Source of the DNA: Anaerolineae bacterium
GTDB taxonomy: Bacteria > Chloroflexota > Anaerolineae > Aggregatilineales > JAFGMM01
Assembly (NCBI GenBank): GCA_027494055.1
Contig: JAOSJO010000022.1
Location: 584,893 to 648,892, forward strand
DNA: 64,000 bases
Reading direction: 5' to 3'
Position 1 is the first letter of the stretch. The number at the start of each line of letters is the position of its first letter. Made by a program: the position numbers and the translations under genes. Below the pieces are notes generated by a model. That model worked only from the letters and a program-made list of their open reading frames with translations. It made no database searches and had not been told where the DNA came from. Of this stretch, positions 14,748 through 64,000 are shown in pieces.

Positions 14748-14902
14748 CGCCGGCCGCGCGTGAATTTCCTGCCTCAATCTTTTACGGAGGGTTAAGGGTA
14801 ATAGGGTACAATCTTATCTGGTTAGCCCGTGCTTGCCACAGACAATTGCGCGTTTTGCGGGCTGGCTGTTCGCCACCGCATTGAGGTTGAGAGGAGAATT
14901 TC

Positions 14903-16466
14903 ATGTCACACAACCAGAAGACGCACGATACGAAGCGCCGCCTGTCGCGCCGCGAGTTCCTCAAGGTCAGCGCCGCCGGCCTGGCGGCATCGTCGGTCGC
15001 TTCGATCCCGATGACGCTGACCCCCGCCCAGGCGGCGGCGGTGCGCGCGCGCCAGCAGGCGGGGGCGCTGCGTATCGCCTGGGGCGGCGCGCCGGCCACG
15101 CTCGACCCGCTGAGCGCGTCCGCCGACACCGAAATCGCGTTCCTGAACGCGGTCTACGACTACCTGATCGACACCAACGCGCAGAACGAGCTTGTCCCCC
15201 GCCTGGCGACGGGCTGGGAGGTCAGCGAGGACGGGCTGGAATACACGCTGCAGATCGCCGAGGGCGTCACGTTCCACGACGGCAGCGACCTCACGGTTGA
15301 CGACATCGTCTGGACCTTCGAGCGCCTCAAGAGCGGCGGCCCGACCGCCGACCTGTACGCGGGCGTGGAGGTCGAGGCTGGCGAGGGGAACAGCGTCGTC
15401 TTCAGGCTGAGCGGCACCAACCCGGACTTCCTCTTCGACCTCACCGACAACCACGCGGTCATCCTCAAGGCCGGGGCGGAGGGCATCGGCGAGACGTTCA
15501 ACGGGACCGGACCGTTTGTCCTCCAGGAGTACGCCACCGCCGACCGCGCGATCTTCACCGCCAATGCGGATTACTTCGGCGGCGCGCCCGGCGTCGAGAC
15601 GCTGGAATTCCAGTACTTTGGCGACAACACCGCCGCCATCAACGCGCTGCGCGGCGGCGTGGTCGATGTGGTGCTGCGCATGGATGAGGCCACCTTCCTC
15701 ACGCTGTCCGGCGAGGGTGACTTCGCGACCGTACAGGTCGCGACCAACGGCCACGACCTCGTGCGCCTGCGCGCCGACCGCGAGCCGGGCAGCGACGAGC
15801 GCGTGCGCCGCGCCTTCAAGCTGGCGACCGACCGCGCCGACATCTTCCAGACCCTGAAGTACGGCTTCGGCGCGGAGGGGGCGCGACACCCCCATCGGGC
15901 CGCTGTACGCCGCCTACTACACCGAGGAATACCCGCTGCCAGAGCGCGACCCCGAAGCGGCGCGGGCGCTGCTCGCGGAGGCGGGCTACCCCGACGGCCT
16001 GGAGATGACGCTCTACGTGCCCAACCTGCCCGACCGCGTCGCGCTCGCGCAGCGCCTGGCGGCGCAGTGGGAGGAGGCGGGCATCCGCATCGAGATCGAG
16101 CCGCAGGAAGAGGCGGTCTATTACGCGGACGACGGCTGGCTGGAGGTGGATCTGGGCATCACGCCGTGGGGTTCGCGCCCCGTCCCGCAGCTCTACCTGG
16201 AAGTGGCGTACAAGACCGGCGCGGTGTGGAACGAGGCGCACTTCAGCGACGCCGAGCTTGACGAGTGGATCGAAGTCGCGGGCAGCTCGCTGGACGAGGC
16301 AGAGCGGGTCGAGGCCTATCACGAAATCCAGCGCATCCTGATCGAGCGCGGCCCGGTCATCATCCCGTACTTCTTCGCGCAGTTCGGCGTCATGGCCGAC
16401 TACGTGGAGGGCGTAGAGGTGCACCCGTTCGCAGGGCGCACGAACTTCCACGGAGCAAGCGTGTAA
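14903..16466 (+). CDS. ABC transporter substrate-binding protein, family 5 (peptide/nickel type), Tat signal, frame break near 15878
   Basis: Twin-arginine leader KRRLSRREFLKVSAAGLAASS. The 14903 frame turns into Arg/Gly junk after ..KYGFGAEG, and the conserved continuation (GRDTPIGPLYAAYYTEEYPLPERDPEAARALLAEAGYPDGLEMTLYVPN..) lies in the frame of track ORF 16005-16466. Confidence 0.85.
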
Positions 16467-28485: not shown

Positions 28486-29092
28486 CAGAGACCTCCATCT
28501 GTCGAGGAAACTTTGAGGAAGCGAGGCGTTCCGCCTTTTCGACGGACCGGTGCGCTGACCTCAGTCACGGCGCAAGAGAGGCCAAAGTGCAGGCATCCTC
28601 AGTATAACAGCGCCGACGCGCCTGTTTCATGAAAGCCATGTGAAAAGCGGCACAAAACGCACCCAGCCGCAGGGACATTGCGCGCGGACGCACACTCGCC
28701 TAAAATAACTTTAAGAGAGGCAAGAGCCGCCCAGGAGCCTGGCAAGCGACGGACGGCATGGTTGCGGGCGCACGCATTTCACTGTCACCCCGCCAACGCG
28801 CCGATTTTCCGCCGGCAATGCGCCCGCCTGCTGGCCGAAGCGCCGCCGACAGCGAGGCGCGCCCGTGCCCTGTCGGCTTCTCGAAGCCATCCAGATAGCT
28901 CCCGATAGCGTCTCTGTTGTCACGGCGCGGGTGTGAGGCTGCCAGACGCGGCGCGACTCAATCGGCTGGCGGGGCGCGGGACGATGTGCGCACCGCATCA
29001 TGCGCCAGACTCCCCGCAGCGGGGGCAAACGCCGCCAGGCTGCGCCACGGTGGGGGTTGAACTTGTGTCTCAGCAACCTGAAGGGGGCGAAA

Positions 29093-31077
29093 ATGTACCA
29101 CCAGGCTATTCGCGCCAGAAACATCGCGCTGGTTGTGTTGCTCGTCGGGCTGGGGTTGCCGGCGCAGCCGTTCCAGGCGCAGGCTCAGGAGGGGGACCCC
29201 TGGTTGCCGGCGGCGCTGGATGTCATCACGCCTGAGAACGCCGGCGCATTGACTCAGCTCGCGCAGTGGGGCCTGGGGTCGTTGACCGGCGTGGCGCTGT
29301 CGCCCGACGGGAGGACGCTGGCCGCGGGCAGCTCCGTGGGGGTCTGGCTGTACGATACCGGCAATCTCGATGCGCCGCCGCGCCTCGTCCAGGGCCATAC
29401 CGGCGAGGTGAGCGGCGTGTTGTTCGGCCCTGTGGGCAACGTGTTGGCGTCGGCCAGTTGCAGCGAGCCGATCCGGCTGTGGGAGGCCGCAACAGGGAGC
29501 CAGCGCGCAACCCTTGCCGGCTCGGCCCTGTGCCCGGCGCTGTATGCCTTTACGCCGGACGGGGCGTTACTTGCCAGCGCGTCGAACCGGCATGTCGTCG
29601 AGCTGTGGGCGGTCGATGGCGCGGACCAGACCGAGCCGGCGGTCAGGATGGAAGGGCATGAGGCGACCGTCTACAGCGTGGCGTTCAGCGCCGACGGCAG
29701 GCTGATGGCCTCCGGGGCGGCGAATGAAATCCGCGTGTGGGATGCCGCCACCGGCGCGGAACTGGCGCAACTGACCGGCTTTGAAGGGCCGGCTAACGCT
29801 TTGGCCTTCGCGCCGGCGGGCAGAATTCTGGCGGCCGGCACCGGCTCGCCAGACAACGCCATCCGGCTGTGGGATGTGGCCGACCCCGCTGCGGCGTGCG
29901 AGATCGCGCTGCTGGCCCTGCCCTCGCGTGCCGCGGTGGGTCAGGTCGCGTTCAACGCCGACGGGACCCTGTTCGCGGCCAGCGGTGGGAATATGGTCCA
30001 GGTCTGGGAGTTCGCGACCGAGGGCGGCGCGGTCGATTACATGCCCTTCATCTTTTTCGAGGGGCACGCCGACGACATCGGGTCGTTGCGCTTCTTCCCC
30101 CAGCAGGACAGGCTGGTGACCTCCAGCGCGGATCAAACGATCCGCGTGTGGGATGTTCAGACCGGCGAACAGGTCGCAATGCTGGCCGGTTACATGGACT
30201 CGCCAGTCCTCGCCTACAGCCCGGACGGCAGCCTGATCGCGGTCGCCGGGGAGTACCGCGGCCTCAACGAGGCCGTGGTGCTGCTCGACGCGGCGACCGG
30301 GCAGGTCGTGCGCGTCATGGAAAGCGCTTTGAACGAAACCGACTGCATTGCCTTCAGCCCGGATGGCGCGCTGGTGGCCGCCGGCCAGGGGTGGCTGGGC
30401 CGGGGCGGGGTCAAGCTGTGGGATGTCCAGACCGGCGAGCTGCGCGCGCACTTTGCCGATGTTGTCCGCGCCGGCAGCCTGGCGTTCAGCCCGGATGGCG
30501 CGCTGCTGGCGGTCGCGCCCTTGTATGTGACGCCCAGCGAGTTCTACGTGCTCGACCTCCAGACCGGTGAACGGGTGATGACCCTGGGCAGCGACCTCTA
30601 TGAGGGTGATGTCACGAGCGTGGCCTTCAGCCCTGACGGCGCGACGCTCGTATCTACGAGCCTGGACCAGTCGGCGCACCTGTGGGATGTGGCGACCGGC
30701 GCGGTCATCGCCGCCCTGGAGGGCACGAAAGCGCGGTGATGAGCGCGCTGTACAGCCCGGACGGCTCACTGCTGGTGACGGGCGACTGGGGCAATGACGT
30801 GTGGGTCTGGAACCCGGCGACGGCGAAGCCGCGCCTGCGCCTGGATGTGGGTGCGGCGGTGCGCACGATGGCCTTCAGCCCTGGCGGGGAGTTGCTCGCG
30901 ATTGGCGGCAGATTCCGCATCGTTGAGGTGTGGAACCTGCGCGCCAGCACGCGCCTGGCGACGCTCCAGGACCCCTTGAGTGACATCAGAAGCGTGGCGT
31001 TCAGCCCCGACGGGCGCGTTCTCGCCGGGGCGGGTTCGGATGGTGTTGTCCGGTTATGGGGCGTTCCGTTAGACTGA
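29093..31077 (+). CDS. Secreted WD40/beta-propeller repeat protein with a frame break near 30720
   Basis: Leader MYHQAIRARNIALVVLLVGLGLPAQPFQAQA. Many repeats of the form ..FSPDG..LA.....IRLWD... Track ORF 29000-30739 continues in ORF 30682-31077 at ..ALEG|HESAVMSALYSPDG... Confidence 0.8.
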
Positions 31078-33484: not shown

Positions 33485-33595
33485 CGCCGGGCGCGTTTTT
33501 GGGGCCGTTGTCCAATGGCGCTGGCCGCGTTTGTGCATAGAATCAGGTGTTGATCCAGACTTCGCCGGGTGAGATGGGCATTATCAGGGCAGCGC

Positions 33596-34649
33596 ATGCG
33601 TGACAAGCGGACAGTAGACGAACTCTCGATTGAGGAACTGGAGATCATCCTCGCCATCAAGAAGCGCGAGGCGCGCCAGGAGCGCCTGCGGCAGATGGCG
33701 CAGCGCGGGCGCGTGGTGGGTGCGTCGCCGGAGGACAACCGCCAGCCGGCCCCGGAGCCGCAGTTGCACGAGCTTGGCGTGGACATCCCCGCGCCAGAGC
33801 GCCCCCGGCACTTCGACACCACATTCGAGCCGCCCCAGTGGGAGGAGGACCTCGGCTCCCGGCCTGAAAAGCCGGAGAAGCGCAAAAAGGAGCCTGACCC
33901 CGTCCGCCCGCTCGCCGAGCGCGAGAAGGCGGCGCGGTGGCGGCGCTTCCGCGACAAGTTCCTGCTGGTGATCGAGGTCTGCGCGCTGGTCGGCTTCGTG
34001 GCGCTGCTCGGCCTGGTTGCGCTCAGCGTGCGCGACATCATGGAAACCACGCGCCAGGAGATGGCCGCCGCCGCCGCCGCCCTCCCCACGCCCACGGACG
34101 CGCCGGACATCGGCGTGCCCATCGTGCTCCCCGGCGGGCACACGCCCCCGACCTCGCCCGGCGGCGCGCGCTACAACCTCAACGAGATCCCCGAACACCT
34201 GCGGCCCGTGGTGCAGTCGCAGCTCGAAGCGCCCATTACGCGCCCGACGCCCGGCGCGGAGTCGCCGGTGCGCATCCGCATCCCGGACATCGGCGTTGAC
34301 CACCCGGTGGTGCTCGGCGATGACTGGGAGACGCTGAAAGCGCGGCGTGGGGCACCGGCTGGGTAGCGCAAACCCCGGCCAACGCGGTAATATGGTGATG
34401 TCCGCGCACAACGACATCTACGGCGAGATCTTCCGCTACCTGGACCAGTTGCAGCCCGGAGATGAGATCTTCGTCCAGACGGCCAGCGAAGAATTCCGGT
34501 ATGTGGTCAACGAGTGGCGCATCGTCGCGCCGACCGACGTGTGGGTGCTCGCGCCGACGCAAGGCCCCACGCTGACGCTGGTCTCCTGCTACCCGTACCT
34601 GATCGATACCGAGCGCATCGTCGTGTTCGCGGACCTGGCCGAGAGTTGA
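33596..34649 (+). CDS. Sortase-family transpeptidase with a long N-terminal region and one TM helix; frame break near 34340
   Basis: The TM segment is FLLVIEVCALVGFVALLGLVAL. The catalytic domain is split between track ORFs 33569-34366 and 34347-34649 (..VLGDDWETLK|(R)GVGHRLGSANPGQRGNMVMSAHNDIYGEIF..LTLVSCYPY..), with the conserved His (SAHND) and Cys (LVSC). Confidence 0.75.
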
Positions 34650-35126: not shown

Positions 35127-35648
35127 TTGACTCAAGACGTGAAAAGTATGACGACCTGCCCCAAGTGTAAAACCCAAAACCCCGAAGGAATCCTCTTCTG
35201 CCAGAACTGCGGCTGGGCGCTGATGGATATGGCGCGGTACAAGGCGACCAGCACCCTGGAACTCCCCCAGGACGCGCCAACGGAGACGCGCACACGACCC
35301 CAGGGCACCTCTACGCTGCGGCCCGATGGCGCGGTGCGGATTCACATTGAGGGCGCGCAACCCATGACGCTGAACTTCGCCAGAGACCTCCTCTTCGGGC
35401 GGCCCGACCCGACCACCGGCCACAAGCCGGATGTCGATCTGACGCCCTTTGGCGGCCTGGAGAAAGGCGTCAGCCGCGCCCACGCCAAGCTGGCCCGCAC
35501 CGATAACGGCTTGCTGCTCAACGACCTCTCCAGCACCAACGGAACCTGGCTCAACGGCAAGCGCGTGGTGCCCGAAAGCCCGCTCAGGGTGCGCGACGGC
35601 GACGAGGTGCGCATGGGCCAGCTCGTCATGGAGATTTTCTTCAAGTGA
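35127..35648 (+). CDS. Zinc-ribbon plus FHA domain protein (paralog 1)
   Basis: CPKCKTQNPEGILFCQNCG, then an FHA core (..LLFGR...DVDL....GVSRAHAKL....LLLNDLSSTNGTWLNG..). An alternative ATG start is at 35148. Confidence 0.85.
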   Translation: MTQDVKSMTTCPKCKTQNPEGILFCQNCGWALMDMARYKATSTLELPQDAPTETRTRPQGTSTLRPDGAVRIHIEGAQPMTLNFARDLLFGRPDPTTGHKPDVDLTPFGGLEKGVSRAHAKLARTDNGLLLNDLSSTNGTWLNGKRVVPESPLRVRDGDEVRMGQLVMEIFFK

Positions 35649-35777
35649 GGCGTGCGCCCGCTGTCGCCTCGCCGCAGATGGACGCCTCTGAGCCGGGAGA
35701 CGCCTGGCATCGCCGGGCAGGAAGCGCTCTGACAGGTTTGTGAGGCTCTTGGCCGGGACAGGCGGGATCGAAGCGCA

Positions 35778-36284
35778 ATGGTAGACGCGACGCGGCGTTG
35801 TCCGGTCTGCGACCACGAAAATCCCCTGGACGAGTTCGTCTGCCGGCGCTGCGGCGCGCGCCTGGAACCCCCCTCCTTTGACACCTCCCTCCTGCCAGCC
35901 GAAGACGGCGCGGAGGGCGAGGCCCGCGCCAGCGACGGTACCGCGACATTCGGCCCATACCGCACCCTGCGCATCGAGATCGAAGGCAGCGCCCAGCCCG
36001 TCCACGCGCACCCACAGCCTGAGATTGTGCTCGGTCGGCGCGACCCCGGCGCCGACATCGACCCGGAGATCGACCTCACGCCCTTCGCCGGCTTCCGGAT
36101 GGGGGTCTCGCGCCGCCATGCTGCGATCCGCGCCAGCGGCGACCGTCTCAACCTGTGGGACCTGGGCAGCAGCAATGGCACCTTCCTCAACGGCCAGCGG
36201 CTCGCCCCAGACCGGCCCTACACCCTTCACGACGGCGACGAAGTGCGCCTGGGCCAGATGGTCCTGCGCATTTCCTTCGAGTGA
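35778..36284 (+). CDS. Zinc-ribbon plus FHA domain protein (paralog 2)
   Basis: CPVCDHENPLDEFVCRRCG, then an FHA core (IVLGRRD..IDLTPF..GVSRRHAAI..LWDLGSSNGTFLNG). Confidence 0.85.
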   Translation: MVDATRRCPVCDHENPLDEFVCRRCGARLEPPSFDTSLLPAEDGAEGEARASDGTATFGPYRTLRIEIEGSAQPVHAHPQPEIVLGRRDPGADIDPEIDLTPFAGFRMGVSRRHAAIRASGDRLNLWDLGSSNGTFLNGQRLAPDRPYTLHDGDEVRLGQMVLRISFE

Positions 36285-36474
36285 CTGGCAATCATTACAC
36301 GATTCCATCCAGATTAAAACCCTGCATAAATCTCCAAAAGCCGAAACTGGTATATGATAGATCGCGCAGTTATGAAAAATGTGAAGGCGCGCGAACCGGC
36401 CCGAATCGGCCCGAATCGGCTTGAGGCCGGGGTGCTGCCTACTCTGTCACGGGACACGATTAAGCGTGGAGAGC

Positions 36475-37020
36475 ATGAACGACACAAGGGCGTCGCGCCG
36501 TATGATCATTTGCGCCAATTGCCATAGCGAGAACCGGGAGGGCGAGTTCTTCTGCGCGGTGTGCGGGTGCGGCCTGATTAACGATCCGCGCACGCCCATC
36601 TACATGCGCAGGGAAGGCGTCGAAGTCAAGACCGACCGTCTGGCGTGGGGGACCTCGCACTTCGAGGAAGGCGACCAGCTCGTCATCTACGTCCGCGACG
36701 ATGCCACGCCCATCATCGTCGAACCGGGCACGCAGATGGTCGTCGGGCGCTCCGACGCATACAGCGGCGTCAGCCCCGACCTGGACCTCGCCGCCTACCG
36801 CGCGGTCGAGCGCGGCGTCTCGCGGTATCACGCCGCCATCCACCGCGTGGAACAGGCCCTCATGCTGGAGGACCTGAACAGCAGCAACGGCACGCGCGTC
36901 AACGGGCGGCGGGTGCCGCCCGGCCAGCCGTGGGTGCTCCACGACGGCGACGAGCTGCGCCTGGGCAACCTGATTATGCACCTGTACTTCACCGCCGTGC
37001 CGCGCTTGCAGCGCTCGTAG
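36475..37020 (+). CDS. Zinc-ribbon plus FHA domain protein (paralog 3)
   Basis: CANCHSENREGEFFCAVCG, then an FHA core (MVVGRSD..LDLAAY..GVSRYHAAI..LEDLNSSNGTRVNG). Confidence 0.85.
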   Translation: MNDTRASRRMIICANCHSENREGEFFCAVCGCGLINDPRTPIYMRREGVEVKTDRLAWGTSHFEEGDQLVIYVRDDATPIIVEPGTQMVVGRSDAYSGVSPDLDLAAYRAVERGVSRYHAAIHRVEQALMLEDLNSSNGTRVNGRRVPPGQPWVLHDGDELRLGNLIMHLYFTAVPRLQRS

Positions 37021-37241: not shown

Positions 37242-37400
37242 ATGCTGGAGGTCAGGTCGAAGCGAGACCGGGAGCGCGGCCAGGGTCTGGTGGAATATGC
37301 CCTGATCTTGATCTTCGTCGCTGTGGTGCTTATCGCACTGCTGACGATTCTCGGCCCCGGAATCTCCAACATCTACCAGGACATCCTGGAAACGCTATGA
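37242..37400 (+). CDS. flp: Flp/Fap-family type IVb pilin precursor (52 aa; below the ORF-track length cutoff)
   Basis: The translation is MLEVRSKRDRERGQGLVEYALILIFVAVVLIALLTILGPGISNIYQDILETL. It has the Flp processing motif G/QGLVEYAL and a hydrophobic helix. An RBS-like GGAAGGGGGTG lies 5-6 nt upstream. Confidence 0.75.
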   Translation: MLEVRSKRDRERGQGLVEYALILIFVAVVLIALLTILGPGISNIYQDILETL

Positions 37401-37446
37401 GCCTCATTGCAATTTGATCGCACGTGCACTTAACGACCAGGCCCGG

Positions 37447-37483
37447 CCTTCATGCCGGGCCTGGCTTCTTTCTCCACCAACAC
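37447..37483 (+). terminator. Rho-independent terminator after flp
   Basis: CCAGGCCCGGC-CTTCAT-GCCGGGCCTGG followed by CTTCTTTCT. Confidence 0.7.
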
Positions 37484-37616
37484 CGCGCCGCCGGTAACGG
37501 CAAGGGCGGGCCGCGAAGCCCTGCAAATCTCATAGGAAATCGGGCGGGATTACGGTGGCTAAGTAAAAATCCAAAGAAGAACAAGAGCCAAGCGGAGACA
37601 TTGGCAAGGACGACGA

Positions 37617-38013
37617 TTAATCATCGGTCGTCTCATCGCCTAAAATCAGACGTTTATGTCGCGGCGCTATAGTCTTTGCGGTCAAGACTGCTCGAAAGAT
37701 ATCCACCTTAACAATATCGGTGACGGGTTCTCTGGGATGATTGAGTTCAAATCGCTCAAATGGATACAAATCGATGCAATCTACGTATGAATCATGGGAC
37801 AAGCAAGTATGATCGGATGCGGGAATATCAACTTGACAGGCTAATAGATCGGGATCATTCTGTATCTTGGCCACAATTCTTGAGTTTATTAAGAAACCCA
37901 TGCAGCGCAGGCCATCTTCACAAACGATAACCACAAGTTTCCCTTTGGGATGTGGAATTGTGTGGGACAGTGTGGAACATAAAAATATGCCACAACTGAA
38001 TGCTCTGAGGCAT
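37617..38013 (-). CDS. Unassigned small protein downstream of the Panacea-like gene (candidate toxin; weak MazF/PemK-like pattern); probable frame break around 37940-37970
   Basis: Track ORF 37617-37934 stays open upstream (..TIPHPKGKLVVIVCEDG..) with no start codon. An ATG at 38013 (MPQSIQLWHIFMFHTVPH..) lies 11 nt after the upstream stop, in another frame. The 397-nt length fits a single indel. Low-GC codon usage. Confidence 0.4.
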
Positions 38014-38024
38014 AACGCTCAACT

Positions 38025-38569
38025 TCAATGGCGATTGTATATATAGTCCAACAACTCTTCGGGGTTGTTGAGTTCTTCCTTTATGATGTCTTCAACATTC
38101 ATGCGAATACTGCCTGCAGTGCCTCTTTCTTTAAACGCCTTCTCCCACGCCCGATCATGGCTGGCTTTCGTTCTGGCACCAAAAAGATCCTTAGGATTTC
38201 GTTTCCTTAGACGCTCATCTGCCCGCAAGGCTTCATCAAGACATTCTCGGTCTGCCTCACTTAACCAATCAAGATCGGCATCACGCGAAGGCTTGATGTT
38301 TGGCCCTTTCTCATTGACAAAACCATACTCGCCAGATTCCGGCGGTCTTTTCATCAAATCATAAACATGTGATGGGGCAGGGCCAAAATCAAAGCATAGT
38401 ATTCATCGCCACAGATAAAACGACCATAGCGCTCCAGACTTATTTTATCCGCGCTATAGAATACCTTGCTGATACTATGAAATGTCGGATCGGGAATACG
38501 GTTGGCGATATAAAGGATTGCCTCTATTGCCTTCTCCCGATCAAATTGAAATCTTATCTGTGTGCTCAT
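38025..38569 (-). CDS. Panacea/DUF4065 (SocA-like antitoxin) domain protein with a frame break near 38391
   Basis: N-terminus FDREKAIEAILYIANRIPDPTFHSISKVFYSADKISLERYGRFICGDEYYA, then after a 1-nt shift in a T-run FDFGPAPSHVYDLMKRPPESGEYGFV... Joins track ORFs 38354-38569 and 38025-38357. The 545-nt length fits one missing base. Confidence 0.6.
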
Positions 38570-38668
38570 GGCACTTCCTCAGCAGGATATAGAACGTTTG
38601 TCCTACTAAGTATATCACGTCAACCCTTGGCTTGTAAAGATTATACGATATGAATCACCAAACCGGAA

Positions 38669-38692
38669 ATCGCTCGTGGAGTTCCGAGCGAT
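38669..38692 (-). terminator. Hairpin downstream of nuoN (candidate nuo operon terminator)
   Basis: ATCGCTCG-8 nt-CGAGCGAT, followed on the minus strand by TTCCGGTTTGG. Confidence 0.45.
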
Positions 38693-38738
38693 ACAGTTCT
38701 AGCAGCTAAATAAGGATACACCCTGCCGGCGCGCGTGA

Positions 38739-40235
38739 TCAGCCGCCCAGCGCCACCAGCACCGCGCGCTGCGCCAGGTCAAGGAACAGCACCGGCGCCA
38801 CGCCGAGCACGAACGTGCCCACTGCCGCCAGGCCGACCGCCACACCCAGGAACGACCGCTGCGCCTGCGCCTCGCCGGGACCCTCGCGCAGGTACATGTT
38901 GACCACGATCCGCAGGTAGTAGAACGCGCTCACCACGCTGGTGATGACGCCGATCAGCGCCAGCCACACCATGCCGGCGTTGACGGCGGCCTGGAAGAGG
39001 AAGAACTTCCCCACCACGCCCGCCGTGGGCGGGATGCCCGTCAGGCTGAGCATGAACAGCGCCATCGCCAGGGCCAGGACGGGGCGCGTCTTGCTCAGGC
39101 CGTTGAAGTCGTCCAACTGCGGGTTGGTCGCGTCGTCCTTCTCGATGGCGACCGTGACGGCGAACGCGCCCAGGTTGGTGAAGGCATACGCCAGCAGGTA
39201 GAAGAGCGACGCGCTCACCGCGAAGTCACGCACGTCCGGCGAGCCAGCCGCCGCCGCCCCCATGAGGATGTAGCCGGCGTGCGCGATGCTGGAATAGCCC
39301 AGCATTCGCTTGACGTCGCGCTGCGCGATGGCGACCACGTTGCCCAGGATCATCGTCAGCGCCGCAATGAGGGCGATGGTGTCCTGCCACCCGGTCGCGT
39401 CGCCCGCGCCCGACACCGCCGGCAGCGCCACGATGAACACGCGCAGCAGCCCCGCGAAGCCGCCGAGCTTCGCGCCGACGCTCATGTAGCCCGTCACGGC
39501 GGTGGGCGCGCCCTGGTAGACGTCCGGCGTCCACATGTGGAAGGGCACCGCCGCCACCTTGAACCCCAGCCCGACCAGCATCAGCCCCGCGCCCGCGAGC
39601 AGCAGGCCCTGGTCGAGTATCAGCCCTGCGTTGACGCGGTGGAAGATCTCGCTCAGGTCGGTGCTCCCCGCCGCGCCGTAGACCAGCGCGACGCCGTACA
39701 CGAGAAACGCCGAGGAGAACGCGCCGAGCAAGAAGTACTTGAGCGCGCTTTCCTCCGAGGCCGCGTTCGGGCGGCGCAGACCAGACATGATGTAAAGCGG
39801 GATGGAGAGCAGCTCCAGCGCGACGAACAGCACCGCCAGGTCGCCCGACGCCCCCATGAGCATCGCGCCGCTGGTGGAGATCAGCAGCAGCGGGTAGTAC
39901 TCGCCCCGGTCGATGTGGGTGCGCTTCAGGTACTCATAGGCCATCAGCACGCCAAAAAACGCCGTCACCAGCGCGATCAGGTTCACGAACGCGGTGAAGT
40001 TGTCGGCGCGGTACATGCCGAGGAACGCCGACTGCCGGTCCGCCGGGAGGTCGAAGAGCGTGAGGTTGTAGAGGAACAACGCCACGATGCCGCCGAGCGA
40101 GAGCACGAGGTTCCAGTGCCGGCGGCGCTCCGGCAGGAACAGGCCCACCGCGAGCACGACGCACGCCCACAGTGCGAGGCCCATGGAGGGCAGCGTCACC
40201 GCGAGGTTCAGGTCTTGGAGCGTAGGAAGTTCCAT
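38739..40235 (-). CDS. nuoN: NADH-quinone oxidoreductase subunit N
   Basis: 498-aa polytopic antiporter-like subunit, last gene of the co-linear nuo operon. Confidence 0.9.
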   Translation of the reverse strand: MELPTLQDLNLAVTLPSMGLALWACVVLAVGLFLPERRRHWNLVLSLGGIVALFLYNLTLFDLPADRQSAFLGMYRADNFTAFVNLIALVTAFFGVLMAYEYLKRTHIDRGEYYPLLLISTSGAMLMGASGDLAVLFVALELLSIPLYIMSGLRRPNAASEESALKYFLLGAFSSAFLVYGVALVYGAAGSTDLSEIFHRVNAGLILDQGLLLAGAGLMLVGLGFKVAAVPFHMWTPDVYQGAPTAVTGYMSVGAKLGGFAGLLRVFIVALPAVSGAGDATGWQDTIALIAALTMILGNVVAIAQRDVKRMLGYSSIAHAGYILMGAAAAGSPDVRDFAVSASLFYLLAYAFTNLGAFAVTVAIEKDDATNPQLDDFNGLSKTRPVLALAMALFMLSLTGIPPTAGVVGKFFLFQAAVNAGMVWLALIGVITSVVSAFYYLRIVVNMYLREGPGEAQAQRSFLGVAVGLAAVGTFVLGVAPVLFLDLAQRAVLVALGG

Positions 40236-58551: not shown

Positions 58552-58605
58552 AGCGGGCGACGGGATTCGAACCCGTGACCTTCTCCTTGGCAAGGAGACG
58601 TGCCC
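58552..58605 (-). pseudogene. 3-prime fragment of tRNA-Gly(GCC): anticodon arm, variable loop, T arm and 3-prime acceptor strand only
   Basis: The reverse complement reads GGGCACG-TCTCC-TTGCCAA-GGAGA-AGGT-CACGG(G)TTCGAATCCCGT-CGCCCGC-T. The upstream 20 nt has a degenerate D-arm look (GGCTCATTTGTGGGC), but no 5-prime strand can pair with CGCCCGC. It is followed by CTTTTTATTTG. Confidence 0.75.
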
Positions 58606-58694
58606 ACAAATGAGCCTGATTAACCGCCACCCCTGGCGTTGCTGAAAGTCCGTACCGCCACCCATAGGGGGTGACGTTCGGAACTCCTGTTCTG

Positions 58695-58753
58695 ACAGCA
58701 ACCGTACAGCAACGTGCCAGGGTGTTAAGGTGCTGACACCACTCTACAGCAAC
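58695..58753 (+). repeat. Three direct copies of ACAGCAAC near the island end
   Basis: Copies at 58695-58702, 58706-58713 and 58746-58753; the last two are TACAGCAAC. Confidence 0.6.
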
Positions 58754-58930
58754 CTTTGCCCACGCTATATGGTACGGAGGTACTCGCGTAAGGAGCTAAT
58801 TCAACCTTAACCCATCCTCAAGCCCCGAAACAGCGAAAGTGGGGTACTTTGTCGCCATGAGTGCCACGTGCCGTCGTAGCTTGACCAGGGGTTGAGCGCG
58901 ACGGGGCGCACGGGCAATGTCCCGGCAGGA

Positions 58931-58965
58931 CCGGTCAGCCAACAGGTTGACCGGTTTTTGTTTTT
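58931..58965 (+). terminator. Rho-independent terminator upstream of the first island gene
   Basis: CCGGTCA-10 nt-TGACCGG followed by TTTTTGTTTTT. Confidence 0.65.
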
Positions 58966-59028
58966 AGCTGGAAAAGCCAAGCGCCCGTTTGGGCGGGCGC
59001 TGGCAAGTGGACTTCTCAGGAGATTGGC

Positions 59029-59486
59029 ATGTGCAACTATGACACCAAACCCGACGAATTGCAACCCCCGGCCTGTTCGACCACATCCGCGACCTTGACG
59101 GCTTTCTCGCAACCCTGCACACACATAGCGTGCGCAGCATCATTCTCACGTCGGATAGCCCGGCGGCGCGCAACCTAGAAACGATCTGCGAAGACGCTGG
59201 CATCGATGCGAAAGTCCACATTGGGAGTGTAGCCGGCCTGTCGAACGCCGCCCGCGAAGCGCTTTTGCAACGCAGCGAAGCGACGCTTGCGCGTGTGTTG
59301 GATGCTCTTCTATACGTGGGCTTTTCTGAGCCTTTTGAGCTACGGGCGGCGTTGGCATCCCTTGAGCAACTCAACATCACAATCAGTGAATACACTCTGC
59401 GAGCCGCCTTGCGGCGAGCGCAAGGATTGGGCCTCCCAATCCTTGCTGGGGACAAGGGAGAATTATGTTGCGAATTTTCACGGTGA
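59029..59486 (+). CDS. Island hypothetical protein with a probable frame break in the C5 run at 59065-59069
   Basis: AGGAG lies 8 nt before the ATG at 59029 (MCNYDTKPDELQP). The protein-like frame ..GLFDHIRDLDGFLATLHTHSVRSIILTSDSPAARNLE.. (track ORF 59130-59486) has no start of its own upstream of the GTG at 59130. Confidence 0.4.
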
Positions 59487-59521
59487 AAAAGAAACCGTGA
59501 AATTCTGCAACCCAATTCGGC

Positions 59522-60265
59522 GTGGTCCGAAGGCGAAGCGCTACAAAGGTGCCCACGCCTGAGGAGATTTGCCGCATTCTCGGCATTGAGCCTGACCGCT
59601 CTGACCCCTTGCCCCAAGAAGCGTTCACCAGCAATCGTGCATACCGCGCGCACGTTCACCGTGCCTTTGTCCGCGCCAATCCGGGTGAACACCCCCTGCG
59701 CGACCTCGCGGTGCGCGTTGGGGTTGATCGACGCACGATCATCAATTACGAGAAGCACGTCGTCACAGACGTATACAGGAAACCGCGTTGCAAGCGCCGA
59801 CCATTGCGTCGCGTGGCCGATTTGCCTGACCTGTTCGTGCGCAAGGGCAAGAAATGCGGCAAACCGCAAGCGCGCGGCTATTGGCTCGAAGCTGGCGGGA
59901 AGCGGTACGCACCCACGCGGGGCAACGCCGCCATGCTCCTGGGTGAGGGGTTCGCTGTCGATTTATGCCGGCAGACGGCTTCGTTTCGATATGTTGACGC
60001 TTCCGCCAGCAGAACGTCGAAGGCGGTTACGCCAGCGGAACAAGGGGCAAGGGCAATGAGCAGAGCGCAGCAATTCCTATTGCCAACGATGAAAGCAAAC
60101 GATCCGCCAGCAGAACCGGAAGCGCCCGCCGACGCCGAATCCGTTCCGCTCAGTTCCCTTGACCCCAAAACGCCACACCTACGTGAAGCGCAAGAGCCTT
60201 TGCCAATGAGTAGAGAGGGTGTTACCATAGCACGCAACGAACGATATTATCTTCACGGTTACTAA
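59522..60265 (+). CDS. Island protein with a helix-turn-helix-like segment; the N-terminus may extend upstream through a frame break
   Basis: ..VPTPEEICRILGIE.. and ..PLRDLAVRVGVDRRTIINYEKH.. resemble HTH motifs. The frame of track ORF 59287-59562 ends ..RRGPKAKRYK just before it. Confidence 0.45.
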   Translation: MVRRRSATKVPTPEEICRILGIEPDRSDPLPQEAFTSNRAYRAHVHRAFVRANPGEHPLRDLAVRVGVDRRTIINYEKHVVTDVYRKPRCKRRPLRRVADLPDLFVRKGKKCGKPQARGYWLEAGGKRYAPTRGNAAMLLGEGFAVDLCRQTASFRYVDASASRTSKAVTPAEQGARAMSRAQQFLLPTMKANDPPAEPEAPADAESVPLSSLDPKTPHLREAQEPLPMSREGVTIARNERYYLHGY

Positions 60266-60368
60266 ACTTATGCTAGCGGTGATGTAGAAAGCGTGGGGGC
60301 GTTTCGGCGTAACGCAAAGTGAGAGAACCCGCCTTGTGCGGGGGCAAACGAAAAAGGGAAGGTGTGAT

Positions 60369-61196
60369 ATGGCGTACAAAACAGAGCAATTGACGAATCA
60401 GATCGACGGTGCAATCGACGGGTTCCTGAGCGAACGGCAAACGATCCTTGACGACGTGCGGTACTCACAGGAATACAAGTTGGAGAAAATCGCCGAACTC
60501 GAACCAACTGTAAGGGAGCGCGTGATTGCCGACGCGCAAAGGCTTTGGGGCGCGCCGGTTCCGAATGACGCCAATGGCCTGACTTGGCGCTTGGACGGCG
60601 GCGTTGTGTGGCAGGAAAGCGAACGCCTGAAAGACGCGCTTCTGCTGGCGGAACAGAAGGCAGAAGAGCCGGACATTCCGCCCAGCGTCGCGTTGCATAA
60701 CCAAGCCCGTGCAGCGGCGATTACCGCCCGCAACACCAGCAACCCCGACGAATTCATGAAAGCGTATGAGGGTGCGCCGCCGTTGACGCGCAACGCCTTG
60801 CAAGACTATTTCGTGATGCCCGGCGTGGCGCGGCTTGATGACAAGTTGGATTGGTTTTCGGTTTATCGCCGGCTCGAACGTGACCGCCAAGCGCGTTTGA
60901 CCACACCGGAAGTGCAGGCGGCGCAACGCGCTATGGACGAATTCGCTACCCTCTTGACCCCGGCATTTGCCGCGCTCGAACGGGTGAACCGCCAGTTTGG
61001 GCGCTCTAGCGATGTGCCCAAGCGCATTCTGCGCAACGTCGAAGTACACCGGGAAGTCAACGCCGAACGTCTGGAAGAGCGTGTTTGGTATACAAAGAAG
61101 GTTACAGACGTGGGCGGCTTCGAAACAGGCGCGCAAAAGTCTAGACGCGAAGCCCGAATGCAACTACAGCCAGAAGACGGGATGCGGTTTGGCTAG
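60369..61196 (+). CDS. Island hypothetical protein (275 aa)
   Basis: An intact ORF starting MAYKTEQLTNQIDG... It is helical and charged in composition, and no family was recognised. Confidence 0.5.
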   Translation: MAYKTEQLTNQIDGAIDGFLSERQTILDDVRYSQEYKLEKIAELEPTVRERVIADAQRLWGAPVPNDANGLTWRLDGGVVWQESERLKDALLLAEQKAEEPDIPPSVALHNQARAAAITARNTSNPDEFMKAYEGAPPLTRNALQDYFVMPGVARLDDKLDWFSVYRRLERDRQARLTTPEVQAAQRAMDEFATLLTPAFAALERVNRQFGRSSDVPKRILRNVEVHREVNAERLEERVWYTKKVTDVGGFETGAQKSRREARMQLQPEDGMRFG

Positions 61197-61198
61197 CT

Positions 61199-61354
61199 AT
61201 GCGCAGGACGTGTGAACATTGCGGTGAGGAATTCCACGCCCCAACGTCACGGGCGGTTTATTGCTCAGGACGTTGCCGGGTAGCAGCATTCCGCCAGCGC
61301 AAGCGGGCACAGGAGGGGGAAGGCGTCGCTCTTGACCCTTCCCCCTCCCCTTGA
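61199..61354 (+). CDS. Small zinc-ribbon protein (51 aa; below the ORF-track cutoff)
   Basis: MRRTCEHCGEEFHAPTSRAVYCSGRCRVAAFRQRKRAQEG.. carries the CxxC...YCSxxCRxxAxRxR pattern common in phage and mobile-element small proteins. It starts 2 nt after the preceding stop. Confidence 0.5.
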   Translation: MRRTCEHCGEEFHAPTSRAVYCSGRCRVAAFRQRKRAQEGEGVALDPSPSP

Positions 61355-61695
61355 CCCAAGCGTTGCGCCGGATGCAAACCCCTTGCGCATACCGCCGGGT
61401 GAAAGCGTGTTCACCCCCGTCACCCAACATGAGCGCAGGCTGCTCAGTCGCACCGTCCTGTCAATCGATCCCCCACGCCGTCAGGAACGCCCCCAGACGC
61501 GCCTAGGCCGGCGTAGGCCGGCGCAAATGAGCAAAGCCATATCAGAACACCTTGCATTCGTCACAATCGATCCTACGCGCAACGCGCCATGCGGTACGCA
61601 CAGCAATGATCGTTGGAACGGCTTGACAACACCCCAAAGTGTGCTAAAATAGGTTATGATATTGCAGGTTAACGTTACCAAAGCAAGGCAAAGCC

Positions 61696-62613
61696 ATGAG
61701 CAACAAAGCGATAGTCAGCACGCTACCGGAACCCATACGGCAGGCACGGCAAGCGACCCTAGACAGCCTGTCAAGCGCCAACAGCAAGCGGGCGTATGCG
61801 CGTGACATCGACGCCTATTTTTCTTGGGCGCAAGCGCGCGGTTTGCCCCCGTTCAATTTGGCAACCCTCGAAAGCTACAAAGCTGACCTTCTGAAAAATT
61901 CCAAGTCGGCACACACGGTAAATCGATATTTGGTTTCCATTCGGGCGCTGCTGAAAAAGTTTGGTCAGCTTTTTCCTGAGGCGCGTGAGCAAGCTGAAAT
62001 CGCCAGCGAAGTCAGCAACGTCAAGCAATTTGGGCAGGCTGTGGGCACGCGGCTTTCTTTGCAGGAAGCACAGGCGATTGTGGACGCCCCCGCAAAAGAC
62101 ACGCTTGCCGGCTTGCGTGACCGGGCGTTGCTCGCCGTGCTGTTTGGCTGCCTTTTGCGCCGGCAGGAGATTGTCGATCTGCACTGGTCGCAACTCAGGC
62201 AGGTTGACGGTCACTGGTGCTTTGTGGACATCCGGGGCAAGGGCAACCGGGTACGCACGGTCAAGGTAGAAGCGTGGGTGTATCGCCGCTTGATGGAATA
62301 CGCCGAAAGCGCCGCGCTGGACACGAACGGAGAGGGGTGTGTATTCGTGCGTTTGGGCAAGGGTGATAGGGTGATTGGCGAGCAGATCACAACCCAAGCC
62401 GTCTACAGGGCGCTTAAGCGCTATGCCCCTGACATCTCGCCACACGACGCCCGGCGCACCGGGGCGCACCTTGCACGCAAACACGGCGCACCCCTTGAAC
62501 AAATTCAGCATACGCTTGGGCACGCCAGTATCGTCACCACAGAACGCTATACCGCCATGCCGATTGACCTTGACAACAGCGCAACCGGGTACATTGGCCT
62601 GAGCGGGCGCTGA
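61696..62613 (+). CDS. Tyrosine recombinase/integrase (XerC/XerD-like)
   Basis: N-terminal SAM-like domain. Catalytic residues occur in order: ..LLRRQEI.., ..GKGNRVRTV.., HDARRTGAH, LGHASIVTTERY. Confidence 0.9.
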   Translation: MSNKAIVSTLPEPIRQARQATLDSLSSANSKRAYARDIDAYFSWAQARGLPPFNLATLESYKADLLKNSKSAHTVNRYLVSIRALLKKFGQLFPEAREQAEIASEVSNVKQFGQAVGTRLSLQEAQAIVDAPAKDTLAGLRDRALLAVLFGCLLRRQEIVDLHWSQLRQVDGHWCFVDIRGKGNRVRTVKVEAWVYRRLMEYAESAALDTNGEGCVFVRLGKGDRVIGEQITTQAVYRALKRYAPDISPHDARRTGAHLARKHGAPLEQIQHTLGHASIVTTERYTAMPIDLDNSATGYIGLSGR

Positions 62614-62731
62614 TGCAGGTGTCTTGGACGTGGCAGGCGACACCCATGGGGGGGTTCCGTGTAGGGTTGCGCCGCGCCGCGCGTTTGACTGACCGCCATT
62701 CGTGTGGAACATTGCACGTTGGTAGAAAACT

Positions 62732-63034
62732 ATGCCGGGAGGCAGAAAAATCAGGGATGGAGCAATGAGTGAGCGAAGAATTTGGGTTGATCCGGTAGAC
62801 GGGAGCATCGTTTACGTGGCGCTGGGTGGGCGCGGGGTCTGGAAGACTACCGACGCCGGCCTTTCGTGGGAACAGATTTACAAACCGGCTCCCGGCGAGA
62901 ATGTGCTTCGCGTATGGGGACACCCTAACAACTCGAAGTATCTCATCATCGCTGACGCGCACGCCGGGACGAGCATCCTGAAGGCGAGCGACGACGGCGG
63001 CGAGACGTGGGTTGACAAGCGCGGCGACCTTTAG
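62732..63034 (+). pseudogene. Fragment of a BNR/Asp-box repeat (Ycf48/sialidase-like beta-propeller) protein
   Basis: Asp-box motifs TTDAGLSW and SDDGGETW occur within only ~90 codons. There is no signal peptide or full propeller. Confidence 0.4.
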
Positions 63035-63149
63035 CGGGACATCGCGCCCGCTTGATCCTCTGAAACATTCCGTGCAAGATATTCGGTAGAAAACACACAT
63101 TCGATGTATACTGGACAAAGCGCCCTACCTGCCACAGCAGGAGCGGCTT

Positions 63150-63852
63150 ATGAGACGGCTGTTGCTGATTGTGCTATCGGTGCTTGTTCCTACTGCCTGC
63201 AACCCACAAAGTGAAGCGCCTGTTTTGGACATCAACGAAATCGCGACACAGACCGCCGCCGCATTGCCCACAGCCCTACAGCCGCCAACCGATACACCCC
63301 TTCTGCCGGCAGAAACGCCGACTGAGGCTTTCACACCTACGCACACTAGCATACCAACACTTGCGCCCACACAACCCGCAATTGTCACAGCCAACGTTGA
63401 TACCACGTTGCGCACTGGTCCAGGTGAGAACTATCCGGCAACTGCCAACATGCCAAAGGGCAAATCCTTTGAGGCGAAGGGGCGGAACGATGGGGGTGAC
63501 TGGATTTACTTGGGCAACGGTATATGGGTTTCTTCGTGGGATGTCTCTTTAGCAGGCGACTTGTACACACTGCCAATTGAGATACCGCCGCCGTCGCCTA
63601 CGCCCGCGCCGCCTACATCGACCCCTTACCCTACCCGACTGCCGGCAACACGTACCCCGTTGCCCACCGCCGCCGCCGCCCATTGCTGTACCAACGTTGC
63701 CGCCGCCGCCCGCAGGTGGCCTATGCCAACACAACAGGTGCGATGAGATGACCAGTTGCGAAGAGGCATATGCATGTCTCAACGCCGGCAACCGCGATCT
63801 GGACAGGGACGGTGACGGTGTTCCATGTGAAAGCATCTGTCCCGGCGGTTAG
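63150..63852 (+). CDS. Lipoprotein with an SH3b-like domain, a Pro/Thr linker and a C-terminal Excalibur Ca-binding domain; frame break near 63665
   Basis: Lipobox LVPTAC. SH3b-like stretch NVDTTLRTGPGENYPATANMPKGKSFEAKGRNDGGDWIYL. The Excalibur motif CEEAYACLNAGNRDLDRDGDGVPCE lies in the frame of track ORF 63577-63852. Confidence 0.65.
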
Positions 63853-63884
63853 GCGCGCAGTCGAGTACCGGCTTGGTTTGTGGT

Positions 63885-64000
63885 TTAGTACCCGCTTTGC
63901 ACCAACACCCTATCAATCGCTTTCGCTGCAATGCTGTCTTGTCCCTTAAGGGCATGGGCATAGACCCTCATGGTAATGCCGGGATTGGCGTGACCCAAAC
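63885..64000 (-). CDS. Tyrosine recombinase/integrase, C-terminal end (partial; continues beyond the window)
   Basis: The reverse-strand translation is LGHANPGITMRVYAHALKGQDSIAAKAIDRVLVQSGY-stop. This contains the conserved LGH....T...Y motif with the catalytic Tyr. Confidence 0.7.
   Translation of the reverse strand, partial: LGHANPGITMRVYAHALKGQDSIAAKAIDRVLVQSGY

Follow-up and report, generated by a model that had tools for sequence, protein, structure and literature searches.

A Panacea antitoxin gene and a predicted MazF-fold toxin gene of PanT cluster T5 in a low-GC islet of an Anaerolineae genome

Between the flp pilin gene and the 3' end of nuoN, the stretch of 64,000 nucleotides (nt) analysed here (hereafter the window, from contig JAOSJO010000022.1 of an Anaerolineae metagenome-assembled genome, MAG) carries an islet of low guanine-cytosine (GC) content that consists of two co-oriented minus-strand genes separated by an 11-nt spacer, named here panA (upstream) and panT (downstream). 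These genes are a conserved, horizontally mobile two-gene module and, as judged from their sequences, they belong to a system that is already catalogued: Kurata et al. (2022, PNAS; PMC8832971) defined the Panacea antitoxins (PanA) together with 88 predicted clusters of partner toxins (PanT), and the islet pair falls into cluster T5, a pairing recorded between 2020 and 2022. We consider it likely that the islet houses a T5-type module, that is, a Panacea antitoxin and a cryptic MazF-fold toxin that would act as a MazF-like RNase and be neutralised directly by its partner.

A conserved gene pair and its place in the PanA-PanT catalogue

Once a frameshift is repaired (see below), panA encodes a protein of 181 amino acids (aa; the unrepaired sequence yields open reading frames, ORFs, of 71 and 110 aa), which matches the SocA_Panacea profile PF13274 over residues 35-116 and, with 38.6 bits, exceeds its gathering score of 25.7 (E 2e-9), and also phrog_1281 (E 6e-11). 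The N-terminal motif by which a preliminary description of the window, made from the letters alone, had recognised a Panacea/SocA-like gene is indeed present, and the two-gene layout that it gave agrees with the coordinates found here. The search for PanA homologs returned 51 matches, and PF13274 was found in all 49 aligned homologs that cover the full length, several of the homologs being named 'uncharacterized phage-associated protein' or 'Panacea domain-containing protein'. The AlphaFold2 model, built on a 50-sequence alignment (predicted local distance difference test, pLDDT, 96.8; predicted template modelling score, pTM, 0.91), is a single compact alpha/beta fold that takes in all 181 residues, with neither an extra N-terminal domain nor a disordered tail, and Foldseek returned nothing with E <0.8 for it, and hence no similar solved structure, in the copy of the PDB searched. 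Computation shows panA to encode a standalone Panacea-domain protein, devoid of an N-terminal DNA-binding or neutralising domain. Deletions aside, the window copy keeps all the conserved PanA residues; it also has, together with its twin in the metagenomic locus L001, a 7-residue basic insertion (LRKRNPKD, about residues 119-126, window 38170-38200) that is absent from the 49 aligned homologs.

The product of panT reaches 132 aa after the repair of two deletions (unrepaired, it is spread over three frames), and this repaired protein gave no match in Pfam, NCBIfam, PADLOC or PHROGs. Nonetheless, it is not an isolated sequence. It shares 94% identity with the intact homolog P0001, a word-indexed search yielded 21 clusters of homologs with identities of 44-94%, and a profile search of 1.84 billion representatives, clustered at 50% identity, put the size of the family at 812 or more representatives at E<=1e-3, with 284 of them at E<=1e-10. 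The most conserved residues in the family are K26, N44 and C80 (98% each), L72 and S76 (96%), K24 (94%), P21 (91%) and C16 (89%), and all the conserved residues are present in the window protein. The possibility that the downstream ORF was non-conserved noise can be set aside, given these homologs and a partner that is conserved along with them. For the same reasons, the view of panT as an unassignable ORF and a plausible new toxin has to be abandoned: it belongs to a large family with a predicted MazF fold, which is listed as PanT cluster T5 (PMC8832971) and has a phage-borne pair already described (PMC7556043). Among the plasmids of PLSDB, tblastn found no relative.

Starting from the toxin homologs, a Panacea gene of 165-215 aa lies immediately upstream and in the same orientation wherever a complete pair is present, and in every locus the partner of the toxin is a Panacea-domain protein, never one of the MazE/PemI type (AbrB or ribbon-helix-helix, RHH). 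Eighteen distinct complete pairs were collected (L001, L006, L007, L009, L011-L017, L019-L022, L024, L028 and L031), in which local profile hidden Markov models (HMMs) of both families match adjacent ORFs, the 64-kb window holding no other match to either. The pair is kept together between flanks that are unrelated from one locus to the next, among them integrase/Fic/RepO genes, IS240 with HigB, a sigma-54 activator, PadR with DegV, IS1595, hemL in Thiomargarita, and a carotenoid gene with rimM in Planktothrix. Sampled the other way, from PanA homologs, two of three loci (L028 and L031) have the toxin downstream. The hosts are Anaerolineales, Dehalococcoidia, Spirulina, Planktothrix, Thiomargarita, Thiotrichaceae, Flavobacteriaceae and a temperate Serratia phage, so that about 18 contexts span Chloroflexota, Cyanobacteria, Gammaproteobacteria, Bacteroidota and a phage. 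The locus has the form on which the catalogue of 2022 is based, being composed of two genes with a gap of at most 100 nt (here 11), found in at least two species and not forming part of a longer operon. The low GC of the islet, the recurrence of the same pair in many unrelated contexts and a pair GC below that of the flanks in 17 of the 18 loci make the islet look horizontally acquired, which bears out the earlier suggestion to that effect.

Module decay is recurrent as well. In a Dehalococcoidales MAG (L018, 2986-3394) the toxin is interrupted into two frames, and the third locus sampled from PanA homologs (L029, 2453-3078; L030, 1915-2540) only has a truncated PanA (profile positions 4-137) followed by a 43-aa C-terminal remnant of the toxin. 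In L003 (1-465), L004 (1-465) and L005 (1-1155; compare L013, 808-1715), an insertion sequence (IS) with an rve-type transposase replaces panA except for its last ~27 nt.

The assignment to T5 goes through family member P0183, which is WP_042154710.1 from Planktothrix agardhii (38% identity to P0001, BLASTP E 1e-26; profile E 1.6e-39). In the matching rows of Dataset S1 (PMC8832971), this accession is given as T5, with WP_042154712.1 as its PanA, no N-terminal domain, the antitoxin gene first and a gap of 11, and both the order and the gap were verified in the Planktothrix genome itself. T1 was considered as the toxin cluster for its cyanobacterial and Chloroflexi entries and rejected, given that those rows list the accession of a family member under T5. 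The window pair resembles T5 in having a PanA with no N-terminal domain, the antitoxin first, a gap of a few nt (11 in both Planktothrix and the window) and a toxin of ~120-155 aa with no Pfam or CDD match, in which MazF becomes visible by profile or fold. It differs in its host, an Anaerolineae MAG, since the Dataset S1 matches listed include no Chloroflexi T5 pair (the two Chloroflexi rows among them are T1 and T2), in the LRKRNPKD insertion of its PanA, in the Ile that its toxin has for Arg before P-x-P-K-x-K, and in its three frameshifts.

Two other described systems are close. Genes phiOS31_p23/p24 of Serratia phage vB_SspS_OS31, a DUF4065 gene and one with a MazF-like HHpred match, were called a putative novel toxin-antitoxin (TA) pair in 2020 (PMC7556043) and belong to the same family (E 9e-51 and 5e-36 with the local PanA and toxin HMMs, respectively; 34.6% identity by tblastn). 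They are adjacent and co-oriented, as in the window, although they are phage-borne, between Q and methyltransferase plus lysis genes, their toxin has 164 aa, and their stop and start codons overlap instead of lying 11 nt apart. PanT clusters T6 (Pseudomonas moraviensis) and T25 (Bifidobacterium ruminantium) also couple, antitoxin first, a Panacea protein lacking an N-terminal domain with a MazF-fold toxin (in T6, likewise with no CDD match), and these MazF-like RNase toxins have been validated experimentally as TA toxins, with a specific inhibition of protein synthesis and neutralisation by their PanA (PMC8832971). They are nonetheless other sequence clusters, and T25 is recognisable as PemK by CDD, unlike the window toxin.

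Predicted fold of the toxin and its relation to MazF

The fold search was run with an AlphaFold2 model of P0001 (pLDDT 89.6, pTM 0.83), a small beta-barrel followed by C-terminal helices. The best 50 Foldseek matches in the PDB are, without exception, members of the MazF family (MazF, EndoA/YdcE and MoxT, including M. tuberculosis MazF-mt3 and the MazF of S. aureus and B. subtilis), with a probability of 1.00, a best E of 1.5e-7, template modelling (TM) scores of 0.57-0.76 and sequence identities of just 11-19%, and the top matches in the viral structure library BFVD are PemK-like proteins and endoribonucleases. The loose resemblance to MazF/PemK-type toxins first noticed in the layout of the small ORF was, in this sense, a correct hint. 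As far as the models go, computation shows PanT to be a MazF/PemK barrel (SH3-like, CcdB/MazF superfamily) whose sequence has drifted under the Pfam PemK threshold.

The sequence-based evidence points in the same direction, with weaker figures. The gathering score of PF02452 (PemK_toxin) is not reached, the window PanT and P0001 having no match to it up to E 1, and 10 of 141 family members match it below threshold (best E 0.001). A narrow family profile searched against PDB sequences matched only a TPR/kinesin-light-chain protein, which is spurious, so that a broader profile of 141 sequences was needed to reach MazF: with it, 11 of 12 matches are MazF, EndoA or PemK, at weak E values of 0.06-0.6, and D75-S76 of the family aligns with D72-S73 of B. 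subtilis MazF. With hhalign, the family and B. subtilis MazF align at E 7e-4. In MazF, the catalytic and RNA-binding residues are Arg25/29, Thr48/52 (R25 and T48 in B. subtilis, R29 and T52 in E. coli) and Ser73. Strand register and low-confidence global hhalign alignments (probability 6.6-26%, against four MazF/Kid sequences) would place K26 at E. coli R29, N44/S45 at T52 and S76 at B. subtilis S73, an active-site mapping that is suggestive, not established. That the near-invariant residues of the family (K24, K26, N44/S45, D75-S76 and C80) would fall at the catalytic or RNA-binding positions of MazF suggests a conserved groove with an altered chemistry.

Compared with the canonical MazEF/PemIK (Kid-Kis) systems, the islet pair has features in common, namely the toxin fold, the C-terminal helix, the D-S motif and a two-gene operon with the antitoxin first, and features that set it apart. 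The antitoxins of those systems have an AbrB or RHH DNA-binding domain and a disordered acidic tail, in place of the globular Panacea protein found here, and the window toxin fails the PF02452 threshold, has conserved cysteines, and apparently carries Lys and Asn/Ser where the catalytic Arg and Thr would be.

The islet, its borders and the state of the window copy

The sharp drop in base composition that extends from the flp terminator to the stop codon of nuoN, already described from the letters, is borne out by a GC of 0.42-0.49 in 300-nt windows across 37500-38700, versus 0.65-0.75 on both sides (Table 1). Two independent metagenomic contigs, L001 (SRR24152391) and L002 (SRR23375768), have the same order of nuoN, islet and flp at ~99% nucleotide identity, and their alignment with the window gives the same islet edges. 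The flp terminator, with an 11-bp stem containing 10 G-C pairs and then a T-rich tail on the + strand, is the sole strong hairpin downstream of panT and marks the backbone side of the islet. Upstream of panA, the promoter-like site can only be taken as a candidate, as the number of such sites equals that expected from shuffled sequences. Near the islet there is no tRNA and no Rfam element, the lone Rfam match being a sub-threshold chance match on the flp terminator. An imperfect direct repeat of 15 nt, CCACCA[A/G]CACCGCGC, flanks the islet (37474-37488 and 38753-38767), and it was considered as a target duplication; this reading was dropped, because one of the copies is inside the nuoN 3' end and GC-rich 15-mers may match by chance, and the repeat could be either an insertion remnant or a chance match in GC-rich DNA. 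An empty site was sought among metagenome contigs with the exact 21-nt nuoN 3' end, and the three matches were all unrelated by blastn.

Elsewhere in the window, three tandem paralogs, each with an N-terminal zinc ribbon and a C-terminal FHA domain, lie directly upstream of flp (35127-37017, + strand). GC is also lower (0.57-0.61) in a second stretch, 58558-64000, which follows a partial match to a tRNA-like sequence (- strand, 58558-58608) that, with 29.5 bits, lies right at the threshold of Rfam. This stretch includes a gene for a tyrosine integrase (61696-62610, + strand; E 2e-23 to Phage_integrase) and probably represents an integrated element truncated by the end of the window.

Table 1. 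Coordinates of the islet features, of the deletions in its genes and of the frameshift-split backbone genes (window positions)
Feature	Position	Strand	Remarks
panA	38025..38569	-	Panacea/DUF4065 antitoxin-type gene, standalone; ATG 38569, TGA 38027-38025
panT	37617..38013	-	T5-type toxin gene, MazF/PemK-like predicted fold; ATG 38013, TAA 37619-37617
Deletion 1, in panA	between 38391 and 38390		C missing
Deletion 2, in panT	between 37983 and 37982		A missing
Deletion 3, in panT	between 37966 and 37965		G missing
Low-GC islet	37560..38720		GC contrast; between flp terminator and nuoN stop codon (38739)
Promoter-like candidate	38609..38638	-	TTTACA, 18 nt, TG-TATACT; 10/12 matches; ~40 nt before panA ATG (consensus scan)
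GAGGA Shine-Dalgarno-like motif	38576..38580	-	6 nt before panA ATG, read from sequence
Hairpin terminator of flp	37437..37464	+	terminator scan; flp convergent
flp pilin gene	37242-37400	+	convergent with the panA-panT pair
SBP_bac_5 gene, split at ~15.9 kb	14891-16463	+	profile 1-242 in one ORF, 246-356 in a second ORF in the next frame
WD40-repeat gene, split at ~30.7 kb	28937-31074	+	continues in another frame
Sortase gene, probably split at ~34.3 kb	33554-34646	+	ORF with the domain begins at profile position 23; the preceding part lies in a different frame

Is the copy in the window a functional one? Aligned with the intact, ~99% identical metagenomic copies, it lacks exactly three single nucleotides, one of them in panA and the other two in panT, so that the single indel per gene described earlier holds for panA and has to be raised to two for panT. 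Both genes are uninterrupted in L001 (181 and 132 aa), and in L002 the 132-aa gene is intact and only the last 129 codons of panA are present, because the contig ends inside the gene. The backbone genes, many of which had been thought to carry indels, do include some that do, although they are few: about three are probably split by frameshifts in roughly 58 kb, and the neighbouring nuo operon, of 16 kb, shows no evident case. As to the deposited annotation, it only comprises a 109-aa C-terminal fragment of panA ('hypothetical protein M5R40_16325 [Anaerolineae bacterium]'), which means that the frameshift is present in the public assembly.

These observations leave two options for the window copy: it may have been inactivated recently and be a relic, or it may have been assembled incorrectly. 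It is quite possible, although we lean against it, that the module is a dead relic with real 1-nt deletions in both genes, in which the loss of the toxin relaxed the selection on the antitoxin and nothing functional is encoded any longer. Three frameshifts in 0.95 kb of islet are a clear excess over about three in ~58 kb of backbone, with none evident in the nuo operon; the module decays elsewhere too, as seen in the interrupted toxin of L018, the remnants of L029/L030 and the IS-disrupted panA of L003-L005; and, moreover, the frameshift stands in the public assembly. However, the source is a MAG with a 757-kb contig, from which a long-read assembly is inferred, and single-base deletions are a typical error of long-read assemblies: all three differences are deletions, the copy is otherwise ~99% identical to the intact ones with every conserved residue kept, and backbone genes are frameshifted too, the three split genes being consistent with an error-prone assembly.

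Mode of action and meaning of the module

The reading preferred here, that of a T5-type module with direct neutralisation of a MazF-like toxin, would work as follows. panA and panT would be co-transcribed from the candidate promoter upstream of panA (38638-38609), with their translation coupled across the 11-nt gap. PanT would act in a MazF-like manner, as an endoribonuclease with sequence specificity, and so arrest translation. The globular PanA would bind it directly and, in the manner of type II systems, keep it inactive; PanT would be set free once PanA is lost, degraded or triggered (for instance, by loss of the element or by phage infection). A role in addiction or in phage defence may be inferred from this. 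The analogy with tested systems favours such a scheme, given that the PanA-PanT pairs tested form stable complexes and are classed as type II (PMC8832971), and that in NetFlax standalone Panacea neutralises directly (PMC10440598).

A number of points weigh against it. The attribution of endoribonuclease activity and of direct neutralisation to this pair draws on the predicted fold and on other PanT clusters, and the canonical catalytic Arg and Thr of MazF are not conserved as such in the PanT family, in a mapping that itself rests on low-confidence alignments. Its cysteines (C16 89%, C60 74% and C80 98%, P0001 numbering) have no counterpart in canonical MazF, and, ahead of P-x-P-K-x-K, the window PanT carries an Ile in the position that is occupied in close relatives by the Arg of an 'RP' motif. 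The copy in the window is itself frameshifted three times. In three samples (L003-L005), the toxin homolog P0005 is intact with no neighbouring panA, the latter having been destroyed by the IS, which argues that cells can tolerate the toxin, or leave it silent, when the neighbouring gene is missing. Finally, the lone T5 pair tested, that of Chryseobacterium bovis (WP_076782182.1 / WP_076782181.1, annotated 'MazF'), has a toxin that is toxic in E. coli and a PanA that is also toxic on overexpression, because of which its neutralisation could not be demonstrated and the pair did not validate as TA (PMC8832971).

Other modes of action may be considered. That the module is chiefly an anti-phage abortive infection system, in which Panacea senses a phage cue and releases or activates a MazF-like effector rather than serving classical addiction, seems rather unlikely, and it overlaps the type II scheme more than it excludes it. 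A sensory role for Panacea has been proposed and TA modules have been linked to defence systems in NetFlax (PMC10440598), the temperate phage OS31 carries the pair as a moron, placed between Q and its lysis genes, and in L006, L007, L028 and L031 the pair lies next to integrase, Fic, methyltransferase or other TA genes, but no PADLOC model matches PanA or PanT, T5 has no reported defence phenotype, and the neighbours in the window are housekeeping genes (nuo, flp). A use of the CcdB/MazF fold for something other than RNase activity, be it CcdB-like gyrase poisoning or a Cys-dependent chemistry, is decidedly improbable. In its favour, the canonical Arg and Thr are replaced, K26, N44 and Cys80 (98% each) and Cys16 (89%) are conserved, and the HHpred results given for the T5 representative in the matching rows of Dataset S1 include, besides EndoA/MazF at 99.5%, CcdB at ~98% (PMC8832971); against this, CcdB is absent from the best 50 Foldseek matches in the PDB, all of the MazF family, the weak sequence matches are to MazF/EndoA with the DS motif aligned, and the MazF-like PanTs tested so far inhibit translation (PMC8832971). 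Least credible of all is an indirect neutralisation like that of Caulobacter SocAB (type VI), with PanA acting as an adaptor that would hand the toxin over to the protease ClpXP. The founding member of the Panacea proteins, SocA, from which the Pfam family takes its name, does work in this manner (cited in PMC7556043), yet Kurata et al. saw stable complexes in the type II pairs that they tested, and the window toxin is unrelated to SocB, which is PanT cluster T10 (PMC8832971).

Returning to the T5-type module as preferred here, its consequence is that what had appeared as a possible new toxin can now be classified, as a cryptic MazF-fold toxin of T5 that is paired with a Panacea antitoxin, and that the range of this cluster is extended to Anaerolineae and Dehalococcoidia. 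The toxin family is large and has no database annotation, and, since it escapes the models now in Pfam, NCBIfam and PADLOC, a dedicated profile HMM would be justified. An intact pair such as that of L001 is also a reasonable candidate for biochemistry, because T5 has never been validated as TA and its active-site residues differ from those of MazF; beyond the cluster range, the family size and this candidate pair, the locus in the Anaerolineae genome adds little. There is, in addition, a farther-reaching reading, improbable in our estimation, in which the T5 toxins would form a branch of the MazF fold with a function of its own, with an invariant Lys-x-Lys, Asn-Ser and two conserved cysteines in place of Arg/Thr, with a new substrate or chemistry and, possibly triggered by phages, a new mode of inhibition, since the inhibitor would be a fully globular Panacea protein and not a disordered peptide threading the RNA groove.

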